Numbered from the stretch's first letter, positions 28,058 through 50,847 are shown. The stretch is 64,000 bases of DNA from Minisyncoccota bacterium (GCA_023140255.1 JAGLLX010000001.1:27861-91860), one strand, 5' to 3'. Program-made: numbers and translations. Notes: generated by a model from the letters alone, not told the origin.

Positions 28058-28192
28058 CTAAACAGAAATTTTAGATCTTCCCTTTCTTCTTCTATTTTTA
28101 AGTATTTTTCTACCAGCTTTAGAAGCGCTTCTTACTAAAAAGCCGTGAGTTTTATTTCTTTTTCTGTTTTTTGGTTGGTATGTTTGTGACAT
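28058..28192 (-). CDS. rpmH: 50S ribosomal protein bL34
   Basis: Hand-translated 44-aa [47 protein letters not shown]; too short for the ORF track. Confidence 0.8.
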
Positions 28193-28280
28193 AGTGGTGG
28201 AAAGTATAATGTAAAATAGTAAAAAAAACAAGGGTTTTATTTACTTTTAACTTTTAACTTTTTACTTTATACTTAATTTA

Positions 28281-30179: not shown

Positions 30180-31427
30180 TTATTCTCCCGCTAAAGTTCC
30201 AGAGAATACTTGTAACCCCCATAAAGAGAAATCTTTTTTATTAATAAAGATTAAATAATCATCTTTATCTGTAATTTGTAATTGAGTAGCGTCTATTCCC
30301 CACCCCTCAGAGTCTGTTAAAGAAACAATTTTAATTGGTTTATTTGTTTCAGTATTTATAGACCATATTTCATCAGAAAATAAGATATTTCCTTTATACC
30401 AATTTTCTAAACTATAATTATAGATTTTTTGAGAAGGAATACCACAATATAGATTCGGAGTATCTTTTCCCCAAACACATTTTTCAGGGAATGTTCTGAT
30501 AGGAAGATCTGTATTTGTTTCGCTTTCAAAATCATAAAGAGATAAAGTTAATCCAAGTTTTGTATTTTGAGAATACAAAATATCTAAATCTTCATTTAAG
30601 AGAGTAGAAAGATTTGTTCTTTTTCCTAAAATTTTACTAAATTTCTTAGTTATAGAATCATAGATGAATAAATATCCTAATATATTTTCTGTTGATTTTG
30701 TTGTGAAAGCTATTCTTCTATCATCTATATTATCTATTCCCCATTCTCTCAGTGGTGACGTGAATAATTGTTTTGGTTTTGTGTTTTCTATATCAGTAAG
30801 TATCACATCTGAATTAGAACCAGAATCTACTAAATAAAATAAATCATCATTAATATATGTAATGTTTTGTATATTATCTTGTAAATAAACTCCATCTAAG
30901 TCCATATTAGTGCTAGTAGCGTTAGATGTCAGAGTGGCTGAATAAGTTTTTATTACATCATTATCTAAATAATTAAAGAATAATGTATTTTCATCTAACC
31001 AAGTTGTTGTATTTATTTTAGGGATAGTTTTGTTTGAAATTCTTTCTAAAGTTAATGAATTTGTTTTAGTTTCATAAATATGTCCTGTCATTTTTTCCAT
31101 ATAACGGATAGTATAAAAATCATCTTTTTCTATAGTTTGTTTAAAAATAATTGCTCCTGCAACAGGGTTGTCTGATATTTTTCTTAAGATTGGTATTGGG
31201 TTATTTGGATCTTGGTTATTTAAATAATCAGGATTGTTTCCTAAATTACCCCAGTCGTTCCCTAAACTTATATTTTGAACTTCATCCACCGGAAAAGATC
31301 CTATATTATCTGAACTTTGGTCATTATTATTTTCTTTGTTAAAAAAAATAAAGTAACTAAAAATTCCTACTATAAGTAAAATTATAGTTACTGTAATTAT
31401 TATTTTTTTAATATTTTCATTTTGCAT
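30180..31427 (-). CDS. Hypothetical membrane-anchored protein (last gene of T4SS-like operon)
   Basis: 415 aa, N-terminal TM, Trp/Gly-rich repeats. Confidence 0.35.
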   Translation of the reverse strand: MQNENIKKIIITVTIILLIVGIFSYFIFFNKENNNDQSSDNIGSFPVDEVQNISLGNDWGNLGNNPDYLNNQDPNNPIPILRKISDNPVAGAIIFKQTIEKDDFYTIRYMEKMTGHIYETKTNSLTLERISNKTIPKINTTTWLDENTLFFNYLDNDVIKTYSATLTSNATSTNMDLDGVYLQDNIQNITYINDDLFYLVDSGSNSDVILTDIENTKPKQLFTSPLREWGIDNIDDRRIAFTTKSTENILGYLFIYDSITKKFSKILGKRTNLSTLLNEDLDILYSQNTKLGLTLSLYDFESETNTDLPIRTFPEKCVWGKDTPNLYCGIPSQKIYNYSLENWYKGNILFSDEIWSINTETNKPIKIVSLTDSEGWGIDATQLQITDKDDYLIFINKKDFSLWGLQVFSGTLAGE

Positions 31428-31437
31428 TAATTTAATA

Positions 31438-32268
31438 TTAATTAGAAGGATTAGTTAACATCATTTGGGCATATTTAATAGCATTAATATAACTAATTTC
31501 TTCACTAGAAAGTAAATTTAAAGGAACTGTAATTCTATTAATTTCTATTGGAACATTACCTGTAGCTTTAATACTTAAAGGGGTTTTAATATTTATACTA
31601 CCAGTGTGTACTTTCCAAACAGGAATACCTAATTGACTAGCTAATTCTTCAGCTCTTGTGGAAGTGTTATAGTCTGATGAATTAGGGTCTGTAGATGCAT
31701 TGGTATTATTATTTTTAAGATCAAAATCATCCGTGTTGTTTGGGTTTTTGTAAGGGTTTGTCGGATCAGTATTTGTTTGATTATCTACATTTGGATTGTT
31801 TGTTGGGTTATCTTGTGGGTCTGGGGGAGGAGTAGTTCCTACAGGTGTTCCTCCTGGTTTATCTAAGTTAAGATTAAAATCTGTTAAACTAGTATTAATT
31901 GTTTTTAAGATTAAAAAGGCGGCTAAGGCGACTAGTAAACCTAACAAAGCATCTTGTATCTGTTTCTTAGCGTCATTTTTTGTATACATTGTTTCTGAAA
32001 TAATATATTTAAAACCTCCCATTACTATCATTAATACAGCTAAAACAGAAGCTAAACCTATCGCTAAATTAAATATATTTTTTAAATAATCTCCCAAAGC
32101 AGCATCACTAGTTACTTTAGTAGGACCACCAGGTAACGGTGTTAGTAATTCATATTCAGCAGCAGAATCAACAAGTAAAGGATTAACTGAAAAAACACCA
32201 AATAATACTATTATTATAATAAGTATTTTAGAAAAATTTAATATTTTTATTTTATTTTTTAAAATCAT
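31438..32268 (-). CDS. Putative T4SS pilin-like protein (TrbC/VirB2-like hydrophobic hairpin) with Pro/Thr/Asn-rich tail
   Basis: Signal/TM, then LPGGPT, two hydrophobic helices separated by a short polar loop, long low-complexity C-terminus. Confidence 0.4.
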   Translation of the reverse strand: MILKNKIKILNFSKILIIIIVLFGVFSVNPLLVDSAAEYELLTPLPGGPTKVTSDAALGDYLKNIFNLAIGLASVLAVLMIVMGGFKYIISETMYTKNDAKKQIQDALLGLLVALAAFLILKTINTSLTDFNLNLDKPGGTPVGTTPPPDPQDNPTNNPNVDNQTNTDPTNPYKNPNNTDDFDLKNNNTNASTDPNSSDYNTSTRAEELASQLGIPVWKVHTGSINIKTPLSIKATGNVPIEINRITVPLNLLSSEEISYINAIKYAQMMLTNPSN

Positions 32269-32271
32269 ATT

Positions 32272-33270
32272 TTATTTAAAATTTAATTGAAAGTCATTTT
32301 CAGTAAATAATTGGAATTTTTTTATATCTGAAATTTTAAAAGATATAAAATAAGACTCTGTCCCCTCTCCCTCTCTACGTAGAGTAATATCTTCTTTGAA
32401 ATCATAAACTGGTTTATTGTTTACAAGCCATTCGTATTTAATATTATCTTTATTATATAATGAAAAATAGAAAGGATAAACTTTTATTTTTATTTCTTCA
32501 GAATATGTATTAGAGACAGGAAAGTATTTTAAATTTCTATTATTTAATATTCCTAATAAAGGGTGGTTTTCGTAGAAAATTACTTCTGGAATATTATTTC
32601 GTATTAAAATACTTTTTTTGTTTTTAATTATTCCGTCTAGAGTTGTTACTTCAACTGAAATCATATTATCTTTAAATAACCCAGGTCCTACAATAGAAAA
32701 AGAATCTTTTCCATAACCAGAATCACTATTGGATATTTTCCAATCTTTTTTCCATAAATAAATTAATTCTTTAGGGTCTATTTTAACACCATTATTATTT
32801 ATAAAATTAGGAATAGCCACTATTTTAACCGTAGATTCGTGGGTATTTAAAGCTTTTCCTTTATAGAAAGGAGGAGTAAATGTATCTGTTTCCCAAATTA
32901 AATCTAATTCAGTAGGAATAATCTTAAATGTTTTTATTAATTGACCTATATCTGAAGAAGTTACCTGAACACTTAGGTTTGTAGTTTCTCCAAAATTTTT
33001 AGTTCTAAAATTAAATTCTTTATTTCCTATTCCTTCTGATTTTAAAACTCCATCAATAAACCAAGAAATTTTTGCTTTATAAATATCAGTTATATATATT
33101 TCTGTTGTAACAGTAACGTTTTGGTAAGCTGAAGGAAATGCAGGGTTTAATTTAATGTTTATGTCTTGATTATTCATATCTAAATCAGCTTTAGATATTG
33201 AAAATAATCCTAATAATAAAATTATTATAAAAGATTTACATATTATTTTTTTAAGTTTTGAATTAAGCAT
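32272..33270 (-). CDS. Hypothetical secreted protein
   Basis: 332 aa with signal peptide. Confidence 0.35.
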   Translation of the reverse strand: MLNSKLKKIICKSFIIILLLGLFSISKADLDMNNQDINIKLNPAFPSAYQNVTVTTEIYITDIYKAKISWFIDGVLKSEGIGNKEFNFRTKNFGETTNLSVQVTSSDIGQLIKTFKIIPTELDLIWETDTFTPPFYKGKALNTHESTVKIVAIPNFINNNGVKIDPKELIYLWKKDWKISNSDSGYGKDSFSIVGPGLFKDNMISVEVTTLDGIIKNKKSILIRNNIPEVIFYENHPLLGILNNRNLKYFPVSNTYSEEIKIKVYPFYFSLYNKDNIKYEWLVNNKPVYDFKEDITLRREGEGTESYFISFKISDIKKFQLFTENDFQLNFK

Positions 33271-33664
33271 TATTTTTTAAAGTTTTTGTAAGTAGTCCTC
33301 CTATTTTATCTTGATTTTCTCTTGATAATATTTCCTTTCTATCTAGTTCATCATCTACTCTAACAATTACATAAGTTAATACTATCATAATAGTTAATCC
33401 AGGGAAAAAACTAAAAGTAACCTCTATCATTGGTGTTATTGTCCAAAGTGCTAACATCCTTAACCCTCTATCAAGAAGACCTACTCCTTTTATTTTAAGC
33501 CATATCCAAAAAATAAGAAATGCTGGGATAGCTAATAAAGAAGATAATATCCAACCTAAAAAAGGGATAAGATCTAATAGAGCTTGAATTCCGTCAATAG
33601 TCATAGCTGTTAAAAGCATAAGAATGAAACTTATTTTACTTATTCTGTAATTATATTCTTCCAT
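33263..33664 (-). CDS. Small polytopic membrane protein (T4SS-associated)
   Basis: 133 aa, 3 TM, directly downstream of VirB4. Confidence 0.35.
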   Translation of the reverse strand: MEEYNYRISKISFILMLLTAMTIDGIQALLDLIPFLGWILSSLLAIPAFLIFWIWLKIKGVGLLDRGLRMLALWTITPMIEVTFSFFPGLTIMIVLTYVIVRVDDELDRKEILSRENQDKIGGLLTKTLKNNA

Positions 33665-33700
33665 AATTTTAAATAAAGATTATATATTTGTTTTATATAA

Positions 33701-35518
33701 TTATTTTTGTGCTTCTTCTAATTCTTTCTTTGCTTTTTTAATATTTAATATTTGTGAAGGATCAGAAGTAATAATTTGATCTTCTGTATATGAAGCAAAA
33801 ATTTGAATAGCAATATGCTTCATTCCCACAAAGAAGATGCCCTCTCCTACTTTTGATTCCAATAATAAATATTTTTCTTCATCCGTTAAATTAAATGTTT
33901 TTTGAACTAAATCAATACTTGTTGGGGATTGTTTTAAGAGTAATTGAATAGATGAGTTTGTGATAATCGGCATTCCATAAGGAGAAGATAAAAAGTCATT
34001 TACATCTTGAGTGACAGTTGATATCCCTAAATAATACTTTCGTCCTCTTTTAGCTAACCCAAATAAGAAAGAAGCTGTGTCTTCTGTTTTCATCATCCAC
34101 CAAGCTTCTTCAATTACCAATAATCTCTTTTTCAAATTCTTTCGGATAGCACTCCAAATATATTGAGTAATAATATACATTGCTACAGGTTTTAATTCAT
34201 CCTCCATATCTCGTAGAGAAAAGACAATAAATTTTCTTTCAATATCTACATTTGTTGGTTGATTAATAAATCCAGACCATGTTCCTTTTGTATATTTAGC
34301 TAGTTTTTGAAGAAGATTGTCTGTATTTTCCATTCCAGCTAAAACTAATTCAAAATCAGATAATAAAGGTGCGTCTATATTTGAAAAATCAGAATCAGGA
34401 GTAATATCTTTAAGAGCATAAGTTTCTGTAATAGCCCTGTCAATAATAGAGTCTTCCTCTGGGCTAAGCCCTCCAAACATTACCCTAAATAAACCAACTA
34501 AGTTAATGATATTAGAACGAAGAACATTTGCTTGAGACTCATCTTCTCTGGCTTGAGGTAAATCAAAAGGATTAATATGGTGTTCGGAAGTTAGAGAAAT
34601 ATTAAAATATCGTCCATCCATTGCTTCAGATAAATATTCATATTCTTTTTCTGGGTCAATAACCATTACATCAATATCAAACATTAATGAACGTAAAATT
34701 TCTAATTTAACAGCATAAGATTTTCCTGATCCTGATTTCGCAAAGGTAACTGAATTATAGTTTGGAAGTGAATATCTATCAAAAAGAATCAAACTAGAAT
34801 TATGACGGTTAATTCCATATAAAATACCTTTATCTGATGTTAAATCTGAAGAGATAAAAGGAAATATACTGGAAAGAGGGGCAGAATTTAATTTAGAAGA
34901 AACTCCTAAAAGGTTTTGGTTCAAAGGTAATGTACTTTTAAACCCTTGTTCTTGTTGAAATAATGAAGGGCGAATATAAATCATTTTTGATTCTAAAATT
35001 GAACGGATTTCATTTTCAGTTCTATCTAACTCTTCTTCTGAGTCTCCATAAATAGAAACATAAACACTAACATCAAATAATTTTTCTTGGGCTTGTTGAA
35101 GTTTATCTCTTAAACTTTCTAAATTTTGATAAGCTGAATCCAAAGCTGGGTCTCTTACCAACCCTTTATTCTCTCTCATTATAATTTGGCTTTGAACCTC
35201 AGCTACTTTTTTTTGGAATTTTCTTAAAACCTTAGATGTTTCTATAGGATGAATAAAAATAGAAACATTGAATTCTTTATCTAAATTTATAACAGGAGAA
35301 AACCAATTATCAGTTAAAAATTTCGGATAAGAAATAACAAAAAAAGTTCTAATAATTTTTTCTCCTAAATGAGTTTCTTTTGGAGTTATTTTTAAAGCAG
35401 AAGGAGCAATAATATCCTTTAGTTCTAAAACTCCTGCATCATAGATTTCTTGAGGTAAAATCGGATCTATTTGTAGTTCTTTTTCTTTTTTATTTAATAT
35501 TTTATTTAAAAAATTCAT
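33701..35518 (-). CDS. virB4: VirB4/TrbE/CagE-family type IV secretion ATPase
   Basis: Walker A FAKSGSGKS, Walker B VIDPEKEY, RGRKYYLGISTVTQD C-terminal motif. Confidence 0.8.
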   Translation of the reverse strand: MNFLNKILNKKEKELQIDPILPQEIYDAGVLELKDIIAPSALKITPKETHLGEKIIRTFFVISYPKFLTDNWFSPVINLDKEFNVSIFIHPIETSKVLRKFQKKVAEVQSQIIMRENKGLVRDPALDSAYQNLESLRDKLQQAQEKLFDVSVYVSIYGDSEEELDRTENEIRSILESKMIYIRPSLFQQEQGFKSTLPLNQNLLGVSSKLNSAPLSSIFPFISSDLTSDKGILYGINRHNSSLILFDRYSLPNYNSVTFAKSGSGKSYAVKLEILRSLMFDIDVMVIDPEKEYEYLSEAMDGRYFNISLTSEHHINPFDLPQAREDESQANVLRSNIINLVGLFRVMFGGLSPEEDSIIDRAITETYALKDITPDSDFSNIDAPLLSDFELVLAGMENTDNLLQKLAKYTKGTWSGFINQPTNVDIERKFIVFSLRDMEDELKPVAMYIITQYIWSAIRKNLKKRLLVIEEAWWMMKTEDTASFLFGLAKRGRKYYLGISTVTQDVNDFLSSPYGMPIITNSSIQLLLKQSPTSIDLVQKTFNLTDEEKYLLLESKVGEGIFFVGMKHIAIQIFASYTEDQIITSDPSQILNIKKAKKELEEAQK

Positions 35519-35523
35519 ATTTT

Positions 35524-36171
35524 TTATGATAAATTAACAGGTTTCTCTGATTCACCAGGATTGAATAATTTATAAAGTAATTCAACCATCTCTTCTGTTC
35601 CTAGTTTTACTAAACGAACTCCTGTTCTTGTTAACCCACTTTTTATTATATTAGCTCTTTGTTCTAATTGTGTTCTATTTTCTTCAAATTCAATAGATTT
35701 ATCTTGTATAGAAATAGTTTTTTTTGAAATAAAAGGGTTTAAACTTTTTTTTGTATTCATTATTGGTGGGTTATAAGATATTATTACAAAAAAAGATTTT
35801 GTCATTATATTTGTTTTATTGGTAAAACTTTTTATAAAATTAATATATTCTTTAGTTTGAATTTTTATTAATTCATTTACTTGTTGTTTTTGTCTATCCT
35901 CCATCATTGTAACGTAAGGGCGAATATCTAATTTTTGAGATTGAATAAATATTTGAACTGGAAATTCAATAGAGTTAAGAAAATTCTGGAATTGTAATAT
36001 TATTGCTTGTTGCTCATCTGCTGACTTTAAAGCCAAGTTAATAGAAGATACCATTAATATAGTTGATAATGATCCGTCTTTTTGAATTATTACACCATCA
36101 CGAATTTCTTTTATTGTAACAAAGTCTTGTGTTTTTTTTGCATTTTTTGTATCCATAATAATATGATTCAA
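35524..36171 (-). CDS. Hypothetical protein (T4SS operon)
   Basis: 215 aa, no TM. Confidence 0.35.
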   Translation of the reverse strand: MNHIIMDTKNAKKTQDFVTIKEIRDGVIIQKDGSLSTILMVSSINLALKSADEQQAIILQFQNFLNSIEFPVQIFIQSQKLDIRPYVTMMEDRQKQQVNELIKIQTKEYINFIKSFTNKTNIMTKSFFVIISYNPPIMNTKKSLNPFISKKTISIQDKSIEFEENRTQLEQRANIIKSGLTRTGVRLVKLGTEEMVELLYKLFNPGESEKPVNLS

Positions 36172-36264
36172 GATTCAAGATTTATGATTTAGGAGGAAAA
36201 TCGTTTTATGATTTTTTCATTTCTTAAATCCTAAATCTTAAATCTGAAAATTTTTTAATTTTTA

Positions 36265-36660
36265 CTACTTATCTTTTATATCTAATTCCCAACTTATTTC
36301 TTTTAATTTACTATCTGATAAACGAGGAATATTTAATTGAGAAACTACATTTGTTTTTTCTACTTTCTCTTTTTTCTTTTTAGAATCTTTTTTCCATATA
36401 TATAATTTACTTGATGCCCAATATTTAAAAGCTGATTCTAAAAGATAAACAAAAGGTTTATTATTTTTTTTATAAAAAGCTAATGCTCCTGAAAAAATCA
36501 TTATTACTATTATTAAAATAATAGAGATGAATTTAGGTAATATTGTATAAAAAGTAAAAGAGATACCTGCTCCCCCGGCTAAATATATAAATTGTTTGAA
36601 AGTTAAAGGTCCAAATATTTTGTCTTCAACCTCAATAAATTGTGGTACTTGAAATTTCAT
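36265..36660 (-). CDS. PrgI/VirB3-like small membrane protein
   Basis: 131 aa, two TM helices, lies upstream of VirB4 as in Gram-positive-type T4SS. Confidence 0.35.
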   Translation of the reverse strand: MKFQVPQFIEVEDKIFGPLTFKQFIYLAGGAGISFTFYTILPKFISIILIIVIMIFSGALAFYKKNNKPFVYLLESAFKYWASSKLYIWKKDSKKKKEKVEKTNVVSQLNIPRLSDSKLKEISWELDIKDK

Positions 36661-36687
36661 TTTATAAAAATTGTTATAATAAATTTA

Positions 36688-37254
36688 TTATTCAATTGGT
36701 TCTCTATATGGGTCTATTGTATAACTTTTTTCATCTTTTTGCTTTTCTAAAACTGGGGATTGTTGATCCTTCTCTCTTGCTTCTGTCTTTTCTTGTTTTA
36801 ATGTTTTAATGTTTTCATGTTCTAGTGAATTTTTAGGTGTTTCAACTAAATCAGTAATTTCTTTTTGAGGATTTGATAATTCATTTAATAACTCTTCTCG
36901 CACTAAATCTTCATCTAAATCCTCAGCATCTTCATCAACTGTATTATGGATTTTCCTTAATGACTCTCTAATGTCTGCAAAAATAGTGTTATTAATTTCT
37001 TCTGCTAATTTTTTAGCTTTTTCAGAATTTAATTCAGTTACTGTTTGAACATTTTTAACAAAATTTGTTCTAGGTTTTAATCCAAGCATTATATAACCAA
37101 TTTCTTTAGTTAATTCTTCAGCTTCATCAAATTGGAGTTTATATTCATTAGCTAAAATTAAAAGTCTTTCATTAACTTTGTTAGATGAAATAGCTTCCCT
37201 AATATCTTCAGGAATACTTAAAAATTTTTCTTCTAGTTGTTTAAATGCGAACAT
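36688..37254 (-). CDS. Hypothetical acidic coiled-coil protein
   Basis: 188 aa. Confidence 0.35.
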   Translation of the reverse strand: MFAFKQLEEKFLSIPEDIREAISSNKVNERLLILANEYKLQFDEAEELTKEIGYIMLGLKPRTNFVKNVQTVTELNSEKAKKLAEEINNTIFADIRESLRKIHNTVDEDAEDLDEDLVREELLNELSNPQKEITDLVETPKNSLEHENIKTLKQEKTEAREKDQQSPVLEKQKDEKSYTIDPYREPIE

Positions 37255-37259
37255 AATAA

Positions 37260-39293
37260 TTATTTTTTATCCTTACTTGAATCTTTTGTTTTACTTTTAT
37301 CTTTAGTACTATCTTTAATTTTTGTAATTTTACCTTTAATTTTTTCTATTTCGTCTTCCATTTTTTCTATCTCATCTTTTTTGTCATTTATTCTATTTTT
37401 GTAATTCAGCACTTCCGATTCCTTTGATGACATCATTCCATTATCTATAGCCTTTTCGTAAGATACATAATCCTTATTGATATTTTCTAATTCTCTTTTC
37501 TCTCTTTTTAATTTATTTTTTGCGGTTTCCATTTCTCTTTCATGTTTAGGTAAATTAACTAATGCTTTAGCTGCGGCCACATCTCCTTCATGATTTCTGA
37601 ACATTGTAGTAAATATTGAAGCATTTCTACCTCTACTTTCTGTTTTATCTTTAAGACTTTGTCCATAAGCTTCAGTTCTAGAGATTTTATTTCCAGCTGA
37701 ATCAGTAATATCTCCCTTTAATGCTTGAGCAAATTTGATTTGAGATTTTCTTCTTTCGTCCACTTTTGTTTTATAACCACCTTTAATTCCCTCACCTACT
37801 CCTCCAGGAATTTTTCCTAAAGTAGCTTTGCCAACTTCAGTGTTTCTTGCATCAAAACTTGAATCGGCCACATTACGTAGTCCTTTCAGACCCATTTTAC
37901 CATACCATTTTGAAGCATGGTCAGAGTTTCCAAGATTCTCAGCTCCCTTACTAGCTAATGCCCCAACTGTATTTCTTCCTAATCTTCCTGCAGCTCCGAA
38001 AGTAGCAGCTCCAGCTCTTCCTTGTCCCCATTTTTGCACACCTTCTCCTATTTTTATTACACTACTAGCACCTTTTGCTCCAAGACTTTTAGCTGAAATT
38101 AAAGCCCCTACCATGAAAAAAGTAATTAATATAAAATTAAAAATTACTATCATAGAACCTCCTCCAGCAAATGCTTCTGCAAAATTATTATTTCCAGCAT
38201 CACCTAACGATTGACTGAATGCTGGGTCGTTTATCCCTTTAGCTACTATATAAACAAACATTAGGTAAATTGGAGCAAAAAAAGCCTGACTAAATAATTC
38301 ATTCCACCATTTTTTAGTTAGACCTCCTGTTTTAGGTAAAATCATTCCTATAAAAGCGAGGGGTGAGAGCATCATTAAAAACATCAAACTAACTATTCTA
38401 ACAACAAATAAAATAGCCGCAGCGAAAAATACAAAGGCAGTAATTAATAAAAAGATAGAACCAAATATAGCAATTGTGAAAATCTTTTTATTAGCATCTC
38501 CCTCTGCTAGTTTCCCATCATAAATGGTTTCTAAGTTTAGTGCTTGAGAAAAAGTAGCGGAAATTCCTTTATCCATCCTTGCAAAACCACTATCCATAAA
38601 TGAAAGATCTGAACTTGCTTTTTCTTGAGTTATAGCATTATAAAATCCAATACCGATGATATTAGAAGTATCAATTATTACACTAGTAAAAAATAAAGAA
38701 AAATTTATAAGTAAAGCAACTATAATAATATTTTTAAGAGAATTTTTAATATTATAACTAGAAAGACCTAAGATTGTTCCAATTGATATAAAAAGTAAAA
38801 GGAATATAAAAATCATATTAGAAAGGTCTCTAATAATACTCCACCCTATATTAACCATACCTAATTGATCTACTAAATTTTTAAAGTTAAGGGTGTATTC
38901 TAAAGAAATATTAAATAAAATCCCTGCTATAGCTAAAACTTGAGCACTTAATTTAAGTATAGTATTCCCTATAGAAGTAAGAGCTTTATCAATCCATGTG
39001 GATGGATTTAACATCGTTCCTAAATTAGATATTTGGGCAGCGAAAGTGTTTTGAGGGTCAACTTTTGTATAATCAGGCATTGGTGTAAATGAACCGTCTT
39101 CACCAACTTTATTACCATTATTAACATCTTGATTCCACCAATCAGCAAAACCAGATAAAAATGATCCATTATTTTCATCAGCCGCAAAAGTAGTACTATT
39201 AAAACCAACTGATCCTAAAAATATTAAGATAATTAAAAAAGAAAGAAAACCAGTTTTAAATATTAATTTATTTTTTTTAAAAATATTTAGCAT
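37260..39293 (-). CDS. VirB6/TrbL-like polytopic membrane protein with charged coiled-coil C-terminus
   Basis: Signal peptide, 6 or more TM helices in centre, Gly-rich loops, KE-rich tail. Confidence 0.45.
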   Translation of the reverse strand: MLNIFKKNKLIFKTGFLSFLIILIFLGSVGFNSTTFAADENNGSFLSGFADWWNQDVNNGNKVGEDGSFTPMPDYTKVDPQNTFAAQISNLGTMLNPSTWIDKALTSIGNTILKLSAQVLAIAGILFNISLEYTLNFKNLVDQLGMVNIGWSIIRDLSNMIFIFLLLFISIGTILGLSSYNIKNSLKNIIIVALLINFSLFFTSVIIDTSNIIGIGFYNAITQEKASSDLSFMDSGFARMDKGISATFSQALNLETIYDGKLAEGDANKKIFTIAIFGSIFLLITAFVFFAAAILFVVRIVSLMFLMMLSPLAFIGMILPKTGGLTKKWWNELFSQAFFAPIYLMFVYIVAKGINDPAFSQSLGDAGNNNFAEAFAGGGSMIVIFNFILITFFMVGALISAKSLGAKGASSVIKIGEGVQKWGQGRAGAATFGAAGRLGRNTVGALASKGAENLGNSDHASKWYGKMGLKGLRNVADSSFDARNTEVGKATLGKIPGGVGEGIKGGYKTKVDERRKSQIKFAQALKGDITDSAGNKISRTEAYGQSLKDKTESRGRNASIFTTMFRNHEGDVAAAKALVNLPKHEREMETAKNKLKREKRELENINKDYVSYEKAIDNGMMSSKESEVLNYKNRINDKKDEIEKMEDEIEKIKGKITKIKDSTKDKSKTKDSSKDKK

Positions 39294-39309
39294 TTATTTA
39301 TTAGAATAA

Positions 39310-40878
39310 TTATTCTCTTATAGTACAGGTATTAGAATCTTTACATAAAATACATTCGTCATATCTTTGTTGAATACCTTTATTAGTTTCAGGAATATAA
39401 TAATCATAATTAGATATGCGAGTATTTATTAATCTATTGATGTCATAACTAATTCCCATTGGTAATCCAGATGCTGAAGTACCATAACCATCCCTTTCTA
39501 TTTCTGCATCAGAAATTTCTATAAGACCGTGTACATAAGGTGCCAAAGTACCATATTTAACCATTATTTCATTTAATTGATTAGCAGTATTTGATAATAA
39601 AGTTTCGTCTTTAAATGTATTTAATACCAGAATAATTTCATCTGATTCTACGATATCATTATAGAGATTATTTTCTAATGTATATAGATCTATAGTAAAT
39701 GAGGGTTGAGTAAAGATAATTGGTTCTGTCAAAAGTTTATTAGCTAAATCAAGTTTATCTGTTTCGTGAGTTACAGTTAAGCAATCTATTAAATCAAGAA
39801 TTAAGTCTCTAGCTCCTAATATTAATCTGTAAGAATCATTTTTAATTTTGTTATATTCTACTTCAAAAGCCAAAGAATCATTTATTTTACTATTAATATT
39901 AGTTTTTATAGAACCTAGGCTTTGTGAATTGTCGTAAGAAGACATATCATTTTGTCCTAACAAACCAGTAGTACTCATTATACTCTTTACTAATTGCATG
40001 AATAATGCCCCTGCAACTTCATTAAATTCATCAGCAGTAACAAGAGAATCTTCAGTTAAACCTAAAGTATGATTTAATTTTGATTCAAGAACTGACCCAG
40101 GAGTTTTTATTTCACAATGTTCTACTTGGTTGCATTGACCGTCTTCACAATCTGCTCCATCCCACATCTCACAGTCTTCCCAAGATAAAAATCCTTCTCC
40201 CCAATTAGCTTGAGTTTTCATTTTTTCTGTTGCTGCAAAAATTTCATCTAATATTTCAGATTCAGCCTGTAAATAAGCTCCATAAGTATTGTTATTATCT
40301 TCAGTTGTCATTTCTATCCATGTTCCCCAACGAAAATCATTTTCTAAAGAAGTTAAAGCTCCTCCCGCATTATCTATAATATCAGATAAAGTACAACTAG
40401 GAGCATCACTTTCATAAAAGGTATTCCATAAAGCTAATTTAATATCAATACTAAAAGGATCGCATAAGAAAGCTAAGTCTGTTCCTTCAATATACTCTCC
40501 AATTACTTGGTCAGCAATATTAAATAACATATCCTCAAGATTTGTTACAAAAAGAGGTCCCTCAAAACCATTATTTATCCAATTTACTATTGAGGTTGTC
40601 ATCTGTCTAATAAGTAATTTAGCGGCGGTCCATGCTAAACCATCTAATACAAACTCTTTATTCTCAGTAGCCCAAGCTGCAGCTGAGGCAATCTTATCAA
40701 AACCTACTGAAATACCATTTTTTATCATATTTATAATACTTATTCCAGTATTTCCAGGGTCTGTAACTGTCGTAGCAGCATCAACTTTATTTGGTTGTGT
40801 AAATAATAAAGAAGGAACTAAAAATGAAGTAACTAAAAAAATTGAAATTATTTTTTTATATTTTTTATTGAAAAACAT
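39310..40878 (-). CDS. Secreted cysteine-rich hypothetical protein
   Basis: Signal peptide; 522 aa. Confidence 0.35.
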   Translation of the reverse strand: MFFNKKYKKIISIFLVTSFLVPSLLFTQPNKVDAATTVTDPGNTGISIINMIKNGISVGFDKIASAAAWATENKEFVLDGLAWTAAKLLIRQMTTSIVNWINNGFEGPLFVTNLEDMLFNIADQVIGEYIEGTDLAFLCDPFSIDIKLALWNTFYESDAPSCTLSDIIDNAGGALTSLENDFRWGTWIEMTTEDNNNTYGAYLQAESEILDEIFAATEKMKTQANWGEGFLSWEDCEMWDGADCEDGQCNQVEHCEIKTPGSVLESKLNHTLGLTEDSLVTADEFNEVAGALFMQLVKSIMSTTGLLGQNDMSSYDNSQSLGSIKTNINSKINDSLAFEVEYNKIKNDSYRLILGARDLILDLIDCLTVTHETDKLDLANKLLTEPIIFTQPSFTIDLYTLENNLYNDIVESDEIILVLNTFKDETLLSNTANQLNEIMVKYGTLAPYVHGLIEISDAEIERDGYGTSASGLPMGISYDINRLINTRISNYDYYIPETNKGIQQRYDECILCKDSNTCTIRE

Positions 40879-40894
40879 TATATTAATTATTTAA

Positions 40895-41818
40895 TTAAAA
40901 GTTAATATTATTTTGTTTAAAAAATTCTCCTATCTTAACTGAAATATTTAGTATTTCCTCCATAGTTTCGTAATATTGTTTAGCTCCAAGTAATGCAGAG
41001 AGAGGGTCTGTAAATATTTTAATTAATTGTTCGGTATTTACTGTTGTTTTAATAAGTAAATTAGTTAAAGTTAAATGTTTGTTTTGTAAAACTAGAGGTG
41101 TTCTCATTTTTGTTAAATTATCTACAAGTTCTTCATAAAAAATTGTATTTGATTTTATTTCTTCTAATATTTCAGGTGAATTATTATCTAATGCTTCTTT
41201 TAAAATTAAATTATCATCTCTTAATTCAGGAATTCCAGAAAGTACCTGATTTAATTCCAATGCGTATCTTTGTAAGGATTCAGTGGATGAGTCTTCTATA
41301 ATATTTAAATCATTTAAAGTGATAAGGTTAAACTCTGGTTCATAACTTAACTTATCATAAGCAATCATTTGAATAAGGTCTTCTTGTTCTTGTGTTCCTA
41401 AAGTACCACTTTGTTTCAAGGCTACATAACTTGTAAATATTTCTCTTGCTAATATATCAGTTTGGGTTAATTCAGTTTGAGGTGTTTGTGTAGGTTCTTT
41501 TTCTTTAAAAATTATTTTATTTAAATTACCTTCCCCTTTAATTAAAGGATCTCTATTTGCTAAAATTTCATCATTATCGTTCATTCCATCATTATCAGTA
41601 TCTATATTATTTGGATCAGTTTTCCATAATACTTCCTCCCAATCTTTTAACCCGTCACCATCAGAATCTTTTTGGATAATTTGGGTAGTAATTTCTTGAG
41701 TATCAGAATCATCTATTGAAATATTTTCTGAATTATTGTTATTAAAAATAATAAAGATAACAAAAAATACCAAAATAACACCAGAAGTCATTAATAGTTT
41801 TTTGTTCCAAAAATCCAT
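40895..41818 (-). CDS. Membrane-anchored protein with thrombospondin-type-3-like Ca-binding repeats (DxDxDG)
   Basis: DSDGDGLKDWEE ... DTDNDGMNDNDE; first gene of operon. Confidence 0.4.
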   Translation of the reverse strand: MDFWNKKLLMTSGVILVFFVIFIIFNNNNSENISIDDSDTQEITTQIIQKDSDGDGLKDWEEVLWKTDPNNIDTDNDGMNDNDEILANRDPLIKGEGNLNKIIFKEKEPTQTPQTELTQTDILAREIFTSYVALKQSGTLGTQEQEDLIQMIAYDKLSYEPEFNLITLNDLNIIEDSSTESLQRYALELNQVLSGIPELRDDNLILKEALDNNSPEILEEIKSNTIFYEELVDNLTKMRTPLVLQNKHLTLTNLLIKTTVNTEQLIKIFTDPLSALLGAKQYYETMEEILNISVKIGEFFKQNNINF

Positions 41819-42084
41819 ATTTATTTTAGTAGAATAAAATAAATTTAAAATATTTTATCCTTATTAATTAATATTATATTAATAATATATACGAACTAAC
41901 CCGAAATTTTAGACGGAATTCATATTACTAAAATTGTAGCATTTTTTAGCATTTTTTTTAGAAAATTTGTGGATAAAAAATAATTGAAAGTTCGTAAAGT
42001 TTATAAGGTCCGTAAAGTCAAAGATTTAGGTCTATTTATTAATAATATATTCAGAAATTCTAAGTTTTTTAGACTAATTACGAC

Positions 42085-45400: not shown

Positions 45401-46453
45401 TTGAAAAATGCTGGTTTTTTTATTGCTTTAAGCCTTATTTTAACACCTTCTATTGGGAATGCGGGTGTTTTTTCTTTATTTACAGGTTGGTTTGAGAATA
45501 ATGTAGAAAAAGTTGTTGTTTTAGTTGATAATGACTATAATTCACAAAATATGGCTCTATTACACACTTTTATAAATAGTAAGCCTAATTTAGCTCAAGG
45601 AGGCGGAGAAATTACGATTGTAGACGATTCTGCTCTCTCTTCAGAGGTTGGTCCTAGTGGAACTATGGCTAATATTAGAGAACTTTCTAATACTGACAGG
45701 ATTGCTACATATATTGTGCGAGAAGGAGATACTTTAGGTCAAATTGCGGAAATGTTTGGTGTTTCCGTAGGAACTATTATCTGGTCTAACGACATTAAAC
45801 AAGGAGATTTGATTAGAAATGGGCAAGTTTTAAGTATCTTACCTATTAGTGGGGTTAACCATAAAGTTGTAAAAGGTGAAACTTTAGCTTCTATTGTTAA
45901 AAAATACCAAGGAGACTTAAAAGAAACTCGTCAATATAATGATTTATTAAATGATGACACTCTTGCTGTTGGAGATGAAATAGTAATTCCGGGTGGAGTA
46001 GATGCCTTACCAACTACAATTACTAAAGCTACATCTTCTTTAGCTCAAAGTATTTTACGTAATCAACAAAATGTTAGAGGTACAGGAGGTCCTGATTATG
46101 GAAGTTATTATATAAGACCAATTTCAGGAGGAATAATCTCTCAAGATTTACATGGATATAATGCAATTGATTTCGCTGCACCTAAAGGAACACCAATTGT
46201 GGCAGCTGCTTCAGGAGAGGTAATTATTTCTAAAGATAATGGTTATTGGAACGGGGGTTACGGGAATTATATTGTAATTAAACATGATAATGGAACTCAG
46301 ACTTTGTATGCTCATAATAGTTCTAATATAGTTTGGGTAGGATATCGTGTTGTTCAAGGGCAGGTAATCGGATATCTTGGTTCAACAGGAAGATCTACTG
46401 GACCACACGTCCACTTTGAAGTACGTGGAGCTAAAAATCCTTTTGCTAGATAG
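45401..46453 (+). CDS. Secreted LysM-LysM-M23 peptidoglycan DD-metallopeptidase
   Basis: Signal peptide; two LysM; HxxxD and HxH (PHVHFEV) M23 motifs. Confidence 0.85.
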   Translation: MKNAGFFIALSLILTPSIGNAGVFSLFTGWFENNVEKVVVLVDNDYNSQNMALLHTFINSKPNLAQGGGEITIVDDSALSSEVGPSGTMANIRELSNTDRIATYIVREGDTLGQIAEMFGVSVGTIIWSNDIKQGDLIRNGQVLSILPISGVNHKVVKGETLASIVKKYQGDLKETRQYNDLLNDDTLAVGDEIVIPGGVDALPTTITKATSSLAQSILRNQQNVRGTGGPDYGSYYIRPISGGIISQDLHGYNAIDFAAPKGTPIVAAASGEVIISKDNGYWNGGYGNYIVIKHDNGTQTLYAHNSSNIVWVGYRVVQGQVIGYLGSTGRSTGPHVHFEVRGAKNPFAR

Positions 46454-47428: not shown

Positions 47429-47463
47429 CCCGTTCTTTCTGAGGAGAGAACGGGGATTTTTTT
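47429..47463. terminator. Bidirectional Rho-independent terminator
   Basis: CCCGTTCT...AGAACGGG + TTTTTTT. Confidence 0.55.
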
Positions 47464-49006
47464 AATAAGTTTTTTTAGGTCTATATTGGAGGGCTTCAAG
47501 AATATGTTCCGGTAGTATTTCTTTAATTTGGTTTAGGTCGGCTATAGTTTGAGCTAGTTTTATTATTTTATGATAAGCTCGGGCTGATAAATCTAATCGA
47601 CTAGCTGATGAAATTAAAACTTCTTTTGTTTTAGGGCTTAAAGGGATTAATGTTTCAATATCTTTAGCTGACATCCCGCTATTTGTATTTGTTTTAGTGT
47701 TTTCAAATCTTTTTATTTGAATTTCTCTAGCTTGAGCTACTCTCTTTTGAATATCTTGGCTTTTTTCTAAATTTTCATCTTTAGTTGATAGTTTTGAGTG
47801 TTCTATGTTTGAAACTTCTACCCACATATCAATCCTGTCTATAATCGGACCTGATAATTTTTTCTGGTAATTTATTATTTGAGTGGGTGTGCAAATACAT
47901 TCTTTTTTAGTTCCATAATTTCCACAAGGACAAGGATTCATTGTGGCAATTAAAATAAAATCAGCTGGGAAAGTGGCTGTACCTTTAGCACGAGAAATAT
48001 TTACTGTCCCATCTTCAAGAGGTTGGCGAAGGGCTTCAATTGATCTCTTTTCAAATTCAGGAAATTCATCCAAGAATAAAATTCCTTTATGAGCCAAAGT
48101 AACTTCTCCAGGTTTCGGACTGACGCCACCTCCTACTACAGATACATAAGAGGCTGTGTGGTGAGGTGAACGAAAAGGTGGGGAGATAACTAAATCTCCT
48201 TGAGATATTCCAGCCACTGAATGAATAGAAGTGGTTTCTAAAATATCTTCAAAAGAAAGATGAGGTAGTATTCCGCGAAAAGCTTTGGCTAACATAGATT
48301 TTCCTGTTCCTGGAGGTCCATACATCGCTATATTATGTCCACCCGAAGCTGCTATTTCTAAACCTCTTTTAGCTGATTCTTGTCCTTTTACATCAGCAAA
48401 ATCAATTTCAGGTATTAAATTTTTATATTCAATTTGGGTTTGGGGACTTTTTTTTAATTCGCAGATTATTTCTTGTTCATCATCTGTTAAATTTAAATGT
48501 CTAATTAATTGGGCTAAATTTTTTACTCCAAAAATTTTAATATCTTTAATTAAAGCTCCTTCCTCTGTATTTTCTAACGGAAGATAAACTTCTTCAAAAC
48601 CTTGTTTTTTAGCTTCGCGTACTAAAGAAAGTGTACCATCAATTTTTCTTAATTTCCCATCTAAAGTTAATTCCCCTAGAAAGATTTTTTTAGCAGGGTC
48701 AAAAATAATATCTTCAGAAGCCAAAAGATAAGCTAGTGCTATTCCTAAATCAAAATTTGGACCTTCTTTTTTAATATTAGCAGGAGCTAAAGAAGTGATT
48801 ACTTTTTGATTTCTGCTTTTTGGTGATTTAAAACCGCTATTTTTAATAGCTGCAGATACCCTATCTCGAGATTCTTCAATTGCTTTGTCTGGTAATCCTA
48901 CAATAGAAAAAGCATTTAATGTTTTTTTAGTAATATCAGTTTCAATATCAACAATATATGCTTTTAGCATATTTGTTTGAGCCGAATGTACTTTTGAGAA
49001 AAACAT
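47462..49006 (-). CDS. comM: Mg-chelatase-like AAA+ ATPase YifB/ComM
   Basis: N-terminal Lon-like domain, Walker A GPPGTGKSM, C-terminal Mg-chelatase C domain. Confidence 0.85.
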   Translation of the reverse strand: MFFSKVHSAQTNMLKAYIVDIETDITKKTLNAFSIVGLPDKAIEESRDRVSAAIKNSGFKSPKSRNQKVITSLAPANIKKEGPNFDLGIALAYLLASEDIIFDPAKKIFLGELTLDGKLRKIDGTLSLVREAKKQGFEEVYLPLENTEEGALIKDIKIFGVKNLAQLIRHLNLTDDEQEIICELKKSPQTQIEYKNLIPEIDFADVKGQESAKRGLEIAASGGHNIAMYGPPGTGKSMLAKAFRGILPHLSFEDILETTSIHSVAGISQGDLVISPPFRSPHHTASYVSVVGGGVSPKPGEVTLAHKGILFLDEFPEFEKRSIEALRQPLEDGTVNISRAKGTATFPADFILIATMNPCPCGNYGTKKECICTPTQIINYQKKLSGPIIDRIDMWVEVSNIEHSKLSTKDENLEKSQDIQKRVAQAREIQIKRFENTKTNTNSGMSAKDIETLIPLSPKTKEVLISSASRLDLSARAYHKIIKLAQTIADLNQIKEILPEHILEALQYRPKKTY

Positions 49007-49452: not shown

Positions 49453-50847
49453 TTACCTTTTTTGTGTTTTAAGTATTAGGCGGTTAGAAATTTCTTGCAA
49501 AACATTTTTATCTGTTGTTATTACTATCGTATTTTTATCTACAAAAGAGTAAATAAAGATTATTTCTCCAGAGTTATTTAGAATAGCTCGAGTATCTTTA
49601 TTTTTTATAACTAAATCTTTAAATTCAAATTCTCGTGTTCTAAGTTCACTAGACGGGATTGCTGGATTCTCTTCTATAAAAATAGGCCTTAAATCTTCAA
49701 TTAAATTCTTCTCCCACTTTAATATTTCAGGGAAAATATTATCAAAAGATCTTGTTTTTAAAATTAAGAAAGGATAAACATCTAAAGAAGAATAATAACC
49801 ATACATAAATTCAAGGTCTATAAATCTCAAAAAAGTTTCTGAAACTCTAGCTTCTAATAGAAAAAATAAATCATCAGTTGTCAATAATTTTTTACCCACA
49901 ATATTATTTTCTTTTAAATGTTTGTCTGTTAAATATAAATGTAATAAAGACCCTATTGGTAGATTTGTTTTACCTAATTCTGTCTTAATTAAACTAGTCA
50001 ATTTAAGTACATTTGATTTTTCTAAAAAGACTTCTTTTTGGTATTCAGAATCAATAAATGATTTTAGTTCTATTTCATCTATTTTTATAACAGGGATAGG
50101 TTTGTAATAATAAACAAAAAATACAACAGATATTCCTGAAATTACTAAAATTATACTTAATATACTCAAATATATATTTTTTTTAGTGCTTTTTTTGATT
50201 TTTGAAAACTTTTTTAATAGATTAGTATCTTTGTGTTCTTTCTCCATCATAACCGCTTGCGTCATTGATATCTTTTTTGTTTTTATAACATTAACTAAAT
50301 CATTTTGATAAGTTCTTACCATAGAAGAGTTCTTTTTATGTGTTTTTTCTTGAGAATTTGTTTCTTTTACTTTAGTATTTTTTTGAATTTTTGTTGAGAT
50401 AGGTGTTTCAATTGGAGCTTCAGGTGTTAAAGATATATTAGAAATTTGTTCTTGTAAATTTGTTTGTGGAATTTCCTCTGCTTTAAGTACTTTTGGATTT
50501 TCAAGTGTTTCTTTTTTAAGAGCACTTTGAGACATATCTTCTTCCTTAATTATTTCAACTACATCTTTTTCTTTTTGTAGAATATTTGTATCTTCTGTAG
50601 AAGATATTTTAGATAATTCAGCATTTAAGTCAGAGACAGACTCCTCTCTTGCTGTAGTGAGATTATTTTCTAGCTCCTCTTTGTTTTTGTCAGTATTTTC
50701 ACTATTTTTTGCTTCAAAAGGTTGCTGGGATATTATTTTTTCTCCTTGGTCAGTGATTGTTTTAATATCTAAGTTATTTTCTTGAGATTGTTCGTTAGGC
50801 AATGGGTTTAAATCTCCAGAAATTTGTCCCTGAGTTTTTTCTTCCAT
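49453..50847 (-). CDS. Hypothetical protein, acidic low-complexity N-terminus, central TM
   Basis: 464 aa. Confidence 0.35.
   Translation of the reverse strand: MEEKTQGQISGDLNPLPNEQSQENNLDIKTITDQGEKIISQQPFEAKNSENTDKNKEELENNLTTAREESVSDLNAELSKISSTEDTNILQKEKDVVEIIKEEDMSQSALKKETLENPKVLKAEEIPQTNLQEQISNISLTPEAPIETPISTKIQKNTKVKETNSQEKTHKKNSSMVRTYQNDLVNVIKTKKISMTQAVMMEKEHKDTNLLKKFSKIKKSTKKNIYLSILSIILVISGISVVFFVYYYKPIPVIKIDEIELKSFIDSEYQKEVFLEKSNVLKLTSLIKTELGKTNLPIGSLLHLYLTDKHLKENNIVGKKLLTTDDLFFLLEARVSETFLRFIDLEFMYGYYSSLDVYPFLILKTRSFDNIFPEILKWEKNLIEDLRPIFIEENPAIPSSELRTREFEFKDLVIKNKDTRAILNNSGEIIFIYSFVDKNTIVITTDKNVLQEISNRLILKTQKR

Follow-up and report, generated by a model that had tools for sequence, protein, structure and literature searches.

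A chromosomal type IV secretion system of the Patescibacteria clade beside the replication genes of a Candidatus Pacebacteria genome, likely a contact-dependent conduit to the host

Type IV secretion systems (T4SSs) are widespread in the Patescibacteria. VirB4 was found in 2,417 of 3,035 genomes of this group, i.e., in about 80%, and forms a clade nested in the MPF_FATA type (Quinonero-Coronel et al., 2025, PMC12102498). According to the same study, the patescibacterial VirB4 proteins are accompanied by TrsD, PrgI/VirB3, VirB6, and pilins of the PF18895/VirB2-like kind, whereas VirB1 and VirB8 are rarely found. Relaxases are limited to 103 of the 3,035 genomes, and in most Patescibacteria genomes the VirD4 homologs are located far from virB4. 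A TrsD encoded separately from VirB4 is typical of Patescibacteria and likewise of pGO1-type plasmids, and in Paceibacteria and Microgenomatia the T4SS genes lie near dnaA, dnaN, rnpA, rpmH, and ksgA (PMC12102498). In Southlakia epibionticum of the Saccharibacteria, the one species tested, the genes SEML1_0005-0019 including those of the pilins are essential for epibiotic growth, as determined by transposon sequencing (Wang et al., 2023, PMC10633639), and deletion of comEC in the same organism yields viable cells with abolished competence (PMC10633639, PMC12857230). In a 2025 review it is discussed that signals could pass through the system or host molecules be taken up by it (PMC12857230), and for a cultivated Microgenomatia strain host-RNA uptake as well as tubular structures, possibly T4SS pili, have been described (bioRxiv 10.64898/2026.06.21.733656). 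The T4SS is a leading candidate for the physical interface by which these ultra-small symbionts exploit their hosts. Here we describe a T4SS operon of eleven genes, which is located at positions 30180-41818 of a stretch of 64 kb, in the following named the window, out of a 261-kb contig of a Candidatus Pacebacteria metagenome-assembled genome (MAG); searches of the neighborhood were confined to these 64 kb. It is likely that this region encodes a chromosomal, MPF_FATA-derived T4SS of the Patescibacteria clade in the arrangement of the Paceibacteria, and that it serves as a contact-dependent conduit to the host and not as a conjugation machine. This kind of system is already known from the literature of 2023-2025 and the locus brings no new kind; what it offers is a clean example from the Paceibacteria whose parts are defined.

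All eleven open reading frames (ORFs) are intact and arranged head to tail on the minus strand (Table 1), in a window that has a G+C content of about 28% and uses the standard genetic code. An initial annotation of the sequence had proposed an eleven-gene, T4SS-like operon at this place, tightly packed with overlaps of 4-8 nt. Every one of its ORFs was recovered and the tight packing holds, whereas there is a single overlap, of 8 nt between ORF8 and ORF9, and the remaining junctions are gaps of 3-93 nt. No intergenic intrinsic-terminator-like site was predicted between the operon genes, and the sole prediction inside the operon is weak and lies within ORF11. ORF1, ORF2, ORF9, and ORF11 have one N-terminal hydrophobic segment each, ORF3 has seven, ORF8 has three, the pilin ORF10 has two in addition to a signal peptide, and ORF4, ORF6, and ORF7 have none. 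From the group listed initially as membrane-anchored unknowns, ORF8, ORF9, and ORF11 are indeed membrane proteins, whereas ORF4 and ORF6 are without a membrane segment and ORF6 is TrsD and thus not an unknown protein. ORF2, ORF9, and ORF11 are identical to the NCBI hypothetical proteins KAJ58_00405, KAJ58_00370, and KAJ58_00360, respectively. The gene set was tested with Pfam and NCBIfam profiles, with scores judged against the curated cutoffs, and the identities given to the components rest on these profiles and on orthologs.

Table 1. Genes of the T4SS operon and elements of its predicted promoter region (window positions).
Feature	Position	Strand	Evidence or remark
ORF1, 307 aa, extracytoplasmic accessory protein	40895..41818	-	TSP3_bac PF18884, E=3e-9, above threshold
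ORF2, 522 aa, secreted, Cys-rich, predicted signal peptide	39310..40878	-	10 Cys
ORF3, 677 aa, extended VirB6/TrbL-like polytopic membrane protein, charged coiled-coil C-terminal tail	37260..39293	-	PF04610, NF045889
ORF4, 188 aa, acidic soluble protein, pI 4.7	36688..37254	-	no transmembrane segment
ORF5, 131 aa, PrgI family (VirB3-like) membrane protein	36265..36660	-	PF12666, E=1e-14
ORF6, 215 aa, TrsD-like, separately encoded VirB4 N-terminal-domain homolog	35524..36171	-	NF041427, NF045975, NF045971
ORF7, 605 aa, VirB4 ATPase, CD1110 / MPF_FATA type	33701..35518	-	NF045971, E=6e-112; PF19044, E=3e-28
ORF8, 133 aa, small polytopic membrane protein	33263..33664	-	three hydrophobic segments
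ORF9, 332 aa, N-terminal signal/anchor helix and three tandem Ig/FN3-like beta-sandwiches	32272..33270	-	AlphaFold2 (AF2) model
ORF10, 276 aa, VirB2-like T4SS pilin	31438..32268	-	PF18895
ORF11, 415 aa, membrane-anchored extracytoplasmic protein	30180..31427	-	one N-terminal transmembrane segment
Extended -10 element TGCTACAAT (TACAAT with TGC before it)	41933..41941	-	sequence inspection, predicted promoter
Perfect DnaA box TTATCCACA	41968..41976	- (operon coding strand)	29 nt upstream of the -10 hexamer
CGTAAAGT pair	41993-42000, 42011-42018	+	upstream of the promoter

The assignment to the CD1110 / MPF_FATA type is carried by the ATPase VirB4. ORF7 reaches 375 bits against NF045971 (VirB4, CD1110 family) at a curated cutoff of 325, its match to PF19044 covers the TraG/VirB4 P-loop domain, and both the Walker A motif (GSGKS) and the Walker B motif (VIEEAW) are intact. 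In a scan of genome collections ORF7 is 74-97% identical to the best 80 of at least 559 confirmed relatives, and these 80 all belong to Patescibacteria-type MAGs, namely Paceibacteria/Parcubacteria wherever the record names the lineage. The best plasmid-borne VirB4 proteins, which belong to Bacillota and Actinomycetota, show about 33% identity to ORF7. The preceding gene encodes the TrsD-like ORF6, which had escaped the initial annotation. ORF6 aligns with several VirB4 models over their first 170-260 residues (NF045975 with E=5e-12 at positions 98-263 of 894, NF045971 at positions 2-171 of 752) and with positions 11-200 of the 201 positions of NF041427 TrsD/TraD (E=1e-6), the latter with a score under the NCBIfam cutoff. 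ORF6 and ORF7 share the same frame, with a TAA (35524-35526) and one codon between them. In related loci trsD and virB4 are separate genes without exception (78/78), they are in frame in 21 of the 78, where about one third is expected by chance, and the spacers extend from a 4-nt overlap up to about 590 nt, some of them holding a whole inserted gene. Since the separation is universal in the relatives and the relative frames vary, it can be regarded as ancestral, and the same observations in the 78 loci ruled out that the split VirB4 is a pseudogene or subject to programmed readthrough.

The trsD-virB4 gap is also the site of a recurring insertion. In four Paceibacteria genomes (related loci are numbered with L; L004:2592-3017, L012:1560-1931, L025:2154-2522, L038:9619-9987) the gap, which is normally 1-10 nt long, contains a gene for a PF05635 23S-rRNA-IVP / Avd-like four-helix bundle protein with E-values of about 1e-38 to 1e-40. 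These inserts are apparently bordered by short repeats, and the gene is suggestive of a small mobile cassette that targets the trsD-virB4 junction.

The predicted components of the translocon are ORF5 and ORF3. The PrgI/VirB3-like protein named in the initial annotation is ORF5, which scores 55.1 bits against PF12666 PrgI at a cutoff of 27 and is detected in 71 of the 80 loci with 56% identity. ORF5, ORF6, and ORF7 are collinear with positions 32-116, 98-263, and 268-893, respectively, of the VirB3-VirB4 fusion protein of a mycoplasma integrative and conjugative element (ICE). The proposed VirB6-like protein ORF3 matches positions 12-211 of the 215 positions of PF04610 TrbL/VirB6 with E=4.5e-4 and 20.5 bits, which is below the cutoff of 25.9, so that the window protein itself does not secure the assignment; 11 of 35 ORF3 orthologs do match TrbL (best 1.9e-7). 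Moreover, ORF3 matches NF045889, the Mbov_0396 ICE transmembrane protein, with E=6e-4, and it is 24% identical (E=9e-8) to a 779-aa protein at the equivalent position of a Pontibacillus module that is described below. A profile-versus-PDB sequence search with ORF3 gave nothing credible. For both TrsD and VirB6 the collinear sub-threshold matches together with the orthologs support the predicted identity.

The pilin ORF10 is encoded three genes downstream of virB4. It passes the profile of PF18895 T4SS_pilin (32.2 bits at a cutoff of 26.6), and it shows the Pro/Thr/Asn-rich tail described for it before: the signal peptide and a two-helix core (about residues 58-124) are followed by a 150-aa tail rich in P, T, N, and D and by a small C-terminal domain. 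Among 44 pilin orthologs, 31 match NF045849 (Mbov_0395 pilin-like conjugal transfer protein of mycoplasma ICEs; best 3.4e-8) and two match pLS20_p028. Across the relatives only the VirB2-like core of the pilin is conserved, and the tails, which are mostly C-terminal and occasionally N-terminal, vary in length from 0 to about 300 aa. In a subset of the orthologs (L055:12922-13767, L071:13214-14101, L072:13172-14005, L026:13008-13976, L079:12891-13730) a C-terminal domain resembles LAS/M15 zinc peptidases in two motifs, SxHxxGxAxD and, at its end, HWH, neither of which is present in ORF10 itself. Peptidase_M15_4 of Pfam matches the L055 pilin weakly (E=0.0026) with the full profile covered, and a PDB profile search for the M15-like tails was negative. 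The motif-bearing orthologs may be pilin-fused cell-wall peptidases.

The genomic position of the operon, beside the replication genes, is a feature that the initial annotation had missed, as it had missed the prior description of the system. On one side the operon is flanked by dnaN, dnaA, rnpA, yidC, and jag/khpB, on the other side by ksgA, pcrA/uvrD, a gene for an M23/LysM peptidase, and comM. The order pcrA-ksgA-ORF1 to ORF11-(jag)-yidC-(rnpA)-dnaA-dnaN is found in all 40 loci that have full 10-kb flanks. When proteins are compared across one set of related loci, the median identities to their window counterparts are 75.5% for VirB4, a value that is mildly inflated, the loci having been ranked by VirB4 similarity, 56% for TrsD and PrgI, 55.6% for DnaA, 45-48% for DnaN, YidC, and KsgA, and 27-38% for ORF1, ORF2, VirB6, ORF9, the pilin, and ORF11. 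The constraint on the motor equals or exceeds that on the replication initiator, and the surface parts are fast-evolving; this combination would be expected of an essential machine some components of which face the host. As claimed before, no relaxase, no coupling protein (VirD4/TcpA), and no VirB11 were found among the window ORFs that were scanned with Pfam (all of at least 300 aa and selected shorter ones). The PilB-type T2SSE ATPase encoded at 17684 consists of 556 aa with a MshEN domain and is not VirB11-like, and the operon contains no VirB7/9/10 outer-membrane core domains according to Pfam and NCBIfam. Neither an integrase nor the boundary of a mobile element adjoins the operon, the flanks being housekeeping genes in conserved order, and the sole tyrosine recombinase of the window, a XerC/D-like protein (58701-59594), is encoded about 17 kb off. 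Because the order of the housekeeping flanks is conserved and no relaxase, coupling protein, or adjacent integrase was found in the 64 kb, it can be concluded that the core locus is inherited vertically and not as an ICE, an origin which is ruled out by the conserved synteny.

Further off, at 49453-50847 and 50949-52202 of the minus strand, an adjacent pair of genes encodes membrane-anchored proteins of 464 and 417 aa without Pfam match, one of which has a long acidic low-complexity N-terminal region. The proteins of this region (49453-52202) were considered as a hidden type IV coupling protein (T4CP), which was ruled out since they are membrane-anchored unknowns without a P-loop.

With the assembly roles taken from homologous T4SSs, the following mode of action can be proposed. 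ORF3 and ORF5 would form the translocon in the cytoplasmic membrane, which would be powered by the two-piece ATPase TrsD and VirB4. VirB4 would pull the pilin ORF10 out of the membrane and polymerize it into a short tube or pilus across the wall of the symbiont, and the exported or membrane-embedded, fast-evolving proteins ORF1, ORF2, ORF8, ORF9, and ORF11 probably form the part that spans the wall and binds the host. The whole machine would then be a contact conduit between episymbiont and host, used for the uptake of host material and/or the export of effectors. Since neither a relaxase nor a coupling protein was found in the 64 kb and the locus is inherited vertically, such a conduit is most likely and not conjugation. 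In the initial annotation, DNA uptake or host interaction rather than conjugation had been suspected for such clusters of small-genome episymbionts, and host interaction is also what the literature proposes for this system (PMC12102498, PMC10633639, PMC12857230).

Several points weigh against this reading. Its biological part, i.e., function and direction of transport, is extrapolated from Saccharimonadia and Microgenomatia, which are classes other than Paceibacteria. A coupling protein could sit elsewhere in the genome, with 64 kb of the 261-kb contig covered. The high conservation of VirB4 is to be read with the ranking of the loci in mind, the VirB6 of the window scores under the Pfam threshold, and the DnaA box of the promoter region is missing upstream of the T4SS in about three quarters of the relatives. 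Furthermore, no VirB8-like NTF2-fold protein of the PrgL/TraM/TcpC type was identified in the operon, ORF9 being Ig-like and ORF1 and ORF2 helical or unresolved, and no VirB1-like wall hydrolase, as Pfam and NCBIfam scans detected no hydrolase domain in ORF1 to ORF11.

Among the other explanations, an adhesive pilus which mediates attachment without passage of a substrate is unlikely, although a surface-exposed position is predicted for the long variable tail of the pilin, the accessory proteins are adhesin-like with their Ig-like and TSP3 domains and evolve fast, and a coupling protein is not present. Against attachment alone, the VirB6/VirB3/VirB4 translocon is complete and under very strong constraint, with VirB4 more conserved than DnaA; attachment of Saccharibacteria has been attributed to type IV pili (PMC10633639), and the roles as adhesin and as conduit are not mutually exclusive. 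Even less can be said for a conjugative T4SS that donates DNA and has its relaxase, oriT, and coupling protein at other places of the genome. VirB4, PrgI, TrsD, and VirB6 do descend from monoderm conjugation machinery, the best plasmid matches of VirB4 are CD1110-family proteins of Bacillota plasmids at about 33% identity, a large distance between T4CP genes and virB4 is frequent (PMC12102498), and our search extended over 64 kb. However, the scanned window ORFs include neither relaxase nor T4CP, the operon belongs to a syntenic core chromosomal region in all 40 full-flank relatives with no adjacent integrase or element boundary, and relaxases are as rare in the group as mentioned above (103/3,035 genomes; PMC12102498). 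Moreover, the T4CP of S. epibionticum is not essential, whereas its T4SS genes are (PMC12102498, PMC10633639). Equally improbable is a dedicated importer of nucleic acids for natural transformation that feeds competence proteins of the ComEC/ComM type and is comparable to ComB of Helicobacter pylori or the archaeal Ced system. Like ComB, the operon lacks relaxase and T4CP, comM (47462-49006) and the PilB-type ATPase lie inside the window, both as initially annotated, and according to the literature nucleotide synthesis is generally missing in Patescibacteria. But the viability of the S. epibionticum comEC mutant, together with the essentiality of the T4SS, indicates that the essential role is not linked to ComEC (PMC10633639, PMC12857230), and ksgA, pcrA, and the M23 peptidase gene separate comM from the operon, with comM in the flank of just one of the 80 loci. 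That the locus is a decaying ICE remnant with VirB4 broken by a nonsense mutation, as the in-frame TAA (35524-35526) one codon away from ORF7 could suggest, can be dismissed in view of the split in 78/78 loci with variable frames and sometimes a whole gene in between, the intact state of all eleven ORFs, and separate TrsD as the norm in Patescibacteria and pGO1-type plasmids (PMC12102498). A contact conduit to the host is thus the reading that we prefer.

The assignment of the accessory proteins is based on profiles, structure models, and distribution. ORF1, the TSP3-repeat protein of the initial annotation, has a membrane anchor (hydrophobic residues 8-26), bacterial TSP3 repeats, which bind calcium, and a helical C-terminal region, and it is detected in 38 of the 80 related loci with a median identity of 27%. 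ORF2 is the secreted Cys-rich protein that had been described, the remaining operon members having 0-2 Cys each. Its N-terminal domain is conserved in W100, G104, P108, and Cys residues. The AF2 model of ORF2 is helical at residues 320-519, with a predicted local distance difference test (pLDDT) of about 90, and falls below 50 in the N-terminal half; Foldseek matches of the helical C-terminal domain in the PDB were all non-significant, and a profile-versus-PDB sequence search gave nothing credible. Homologs of ORF2, ORF9, and ORF11 were confined to Paceibacteria-type genomes in the homolog searches. ORF4 has no credible match among Pfam and NCBIfam profiles and is detected in 37 of 80 loci with 28% identity. 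ORF8 likewise has no match among these profiles; the gap between VirB4 and ORF9 holds a small ORF (about 105-240 aa, mostly with a predicted transmembrane segment) in about 55 of 72 loci, and the sequence at this position is barely conserved and fast-evolving.

ORF9 is detected in 73 of the 80 loci. Its AF2 model has a mean pLDDT of 89.9 with domains at 36-117, 121-223, and 229-331, for which Foldseek found SGBP-B, the phage protein Hoc, SiiE, and other multi-Ig proteins in the PDB with E of about 1e-7, and a profile-versus-PDB sequence search gave nothing credible. Judged from this model, ORF9 may be a surface stalk or an adhesin-like protein. It was also considered as the missing VirB8, which was ruled out since the confident model has three Ig-like domains and not an NTF2 fold. 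ORF11 is detected in 61 of 80 loci, and its 76 homologs are all hypothetical proteins of Patescibacteria. ORF11 is possibly a PD40-type beta-propeller, with faint hints at PD40 and at the propeller of prolyl endopeptidase; the profile-versus-PDB search gave nothing credible. At 45401-46453 on the plus strand, 3.6 kb off the operon and opposite to it, an M23 peptidase with two LysM domains is encoded, which was detected at this place (M23, pcrA, ksgA, T4SS) in 10 of the 80 loci. Either this peptidase takes the part of the VirB1-like wall hydrolase that the operon lacks, or it may just be an enzyme of cell division.

Upstream of ORF1 a promoter is predicted (Table 1). The initial annotation had placed a DnaA-box-like site at 41973; the box is even perfect, and its exact position is 41968-41976. 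The direct repeats also noted there consist of CGTAAAGT, which occurs twice, at 41993 and 42011. Three copies of CGTAAAGT are present in the whole window, where 0.9 are expected, and the closest relatives, when aligned, do not share the pair. The -10 element TGCTACAAT aligns with TGATATAAT / TGCTATAAT of the relatives, which are followed by the ATG of ORF1 after 9-11 nt. At the place where the relatives begin ORF1, the window has a vestigial ATG (41923-41921), nine nt past the TACAAT, with four codons and then a TAA, and the actual start of ORF1 is 100 nt downstream of this ATG. Several lineages among the relatives have the layout of box, 21-40 nt, TGnTATAAT, 9-11 nt, and ORF1 ATG, and the short distance between -10 element and ATG implies an mRNA that is leaderless or has a very short leader. 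In L001, L002, L017, L026, L035, L037, and L077, an equally oriented box precedes the first T4SS gene by 46-64 nt. When boxes were counted that have no more than one mismatch, are oriented like the gene, and lie at most 120 nt upstream of the start codon, they were found for dnaN in 37 of 46, for dnaA in 22 of 47, and for ORF1 in 9 of 38 loci, and for each of 15 other genes in 0-2 loci, an enrichment of the ORF1 boxes over these 15 controls in loci that are phylogenetically related. The box as a class-wide trait was ruled out, as just 4 of the 48 spacers have a perfect one. Most plausibly, it is an element of the predicted promoter that recurs in some lineages, and not a defining trait.

Transcription would begin at the promoter downstream of ksgA, which bears the DnaA box in this lineage, with the operon close to the replication genes. 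In Escherichia coli, DnaA controls the ribonucleotide reductase genes. It is conceivable, albeit improbable, that the operon is under direct control of DnaA and that the machine imports RNA or nucleotides of the host, which would couple the acquisition of precursors to the initiation of replication. If true, an organism unable to make nucleotides would tie precursor uptake to the start of replication.

Apart from the operon, the window has some further features. Three tandem DnaA boxes, TGTGTATAA, TGTGGATAA, and AGTGGATAA, lie within 31 nt at 62472-62502, followed by an AT-rich intergenic spacer of about 400 nt up to 62914. They are located about 35 kb from dnaA and near the window minimum of the cumulative GC skew, and are a second candidate for oriC or for a DnaA-titration site, the others being the boxes that flank dnaA (27948, 26341, and 26435). 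The gene rpmH (L34) at 28058-28231 on the minus strand, with its ATG apparently near 28191, has the same direction as dnaA-dnaN and stands apart from rnpA-yidC-jag, which diverge from it, unlike in the usual rpmH-rnpA pairing. A dksA/traR zinc-finger gene at 49042 was confirmed in the neighborhood. The gene for polynucleotide phosphorylase (PNPase) is found at 52218-54320 on the minus strand, 10 kb off the T4SS operon, a linkage that may be coincidental; according to a 2026 preprint, PNPase and VirB4 are connected with the use of host RNA as food in the phylum.

Compared with the described systems, the operon agrees most closely with the T4SS of the Patescibacteria clade (PMC12102498). Common to both are TrsD plus VirB4, PrgI/VirB3, probably VirB6, and a PF18895 pilin, the lack of a nearby relaxase or T4CP, and the chromosomal context of dnaA, dnaN, rnpA, rpmH, and ksgA, and nothing essential differs. 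All defining features of the clade that were tested are present, except for a VirB6 score above threshold, and VirB4 is a likely member of the clade, judged by identities. With the T4SS of S. epibionticum ML1 the operon shares the core order of VirB6-like protein, PrgI, TrsD-like protein, and VirB4, PF18895 pilins, an Ig-like exported protein (there SEML1_0005, PEGA/Ig), the position within the first 20 genes after dnaA, and a cluster in which no relaxase or coupling protein is recognized. The S. epibionticum system, the only one for which essentiality was shown, differs in its six pilins in tandem, in its pair of very large VirB6-like proteins, and in the presence of a lysozyme-like and an NTF2-like (VirB8-like) protein, whereas the window operon has a single long-tailed pilin and one VirB6, and neither lysozyme nor NTF2-like protein. 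It further comprises ORF1, ORF2, and ORF11.

The conjugative T4SSs of the MPF_FATA type (TrsC-TrsD-TrsE of pGO1/pSK41, PrgH-PrgI-PrgJ of pCF10, CD1110 of CTn2) resemble the operon in the CD1110-family VirB4, the PrgI-type VirB3, a VirB6-like protein, the TrsD encoded on its own (for pGO1), and the lack of VirB7, 9, and 10. Unlike these systems, the operon has a VirB2-like pilin, is without relaxase, T4CP, VirB1-like hydrolase, and VirB8-like protein, is not located on a mobile element, and has a VirB4 that is about 33% identical to the best plasmid matches. Among the T4SS proteins of mycoplasma ICEs, Mbov_0395 is matched by the pilin family, Mbov_0396 by ORF3, and the single polypeptide Mbov_0397 by PrgI, TrsD, and VirB4 together. 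However, all these matches except that of the C-terminal part of VirB4 are far under the equivalog cutoffs, and the mycoplasma system has one fused ATPase and is part of a mobile ICE with its own transfer functions. The canonical VirB/VirD4 features (MPF_T), i.e., VirB7/9/10 and VirB11, are not found in the operon. ComB of H. pylori and the archaeal Ced system are functional analogs only: they have a VirB4-family ATPase and membrane components, no relaxase or T4CP, and transport nucleic acids inward, but ComB has the diderm VirB7-10 core and the Ced components are unrelated except for the ATPase.

The best plasmid-borne match to VirB4 comes from Pontibacillus sp. ALD_SL1, whose 898-kb replicon was typed as non-mobilizable. 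This megaplasmid (NZ_CP062975, 351.8-361.4 kb; L081) has a module in which a pair of pilin-like proteins, a VirB6-like protein, PrgI, TrsD, and a 621-aa VirB4 are encoded collinearly. It is matched by all five core proteins of the window (E=1e-7, 9e-8, 1e-5, 2e-25, and 7e-124), and the annotation of the 9 kb to each side of it includes neither relaxase nor T4CP. The module differs in that a 1050-aa M23 peptidase is encoded directly after virB4, flagellar genes adjoin, homologs of ORF1, ORF2, ORF4, ORF8, ORF9, and ORF11 are missing, and the host is a free-living member of the Bacillota. It may be a non-conjugative monoderm T4SS outside the Patescibacteria. Since the module carries pilin-like proteins, VirB2-like pilins are not unique to Patescibacteria among the monoderm T4SSs. 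The counterpart thus bears on the origin of the pilin, for which we infer that inheritance with an ancestor of the MPF_FATA type is favored over later capture from diderm systems. Beyond what is described in PMC12102498, the locus adds descriptions of the genes that are shown there in gray (ORF1, ORF2, ORF4, ORF8, ORF9, and ORF11) and the DnaA-box promoter, and its additions overall are limited to this promoter, an Ig-domain protein in the place of VirB8, the hypervariable tails of the pilin, and the counterpart in the Bacillota.

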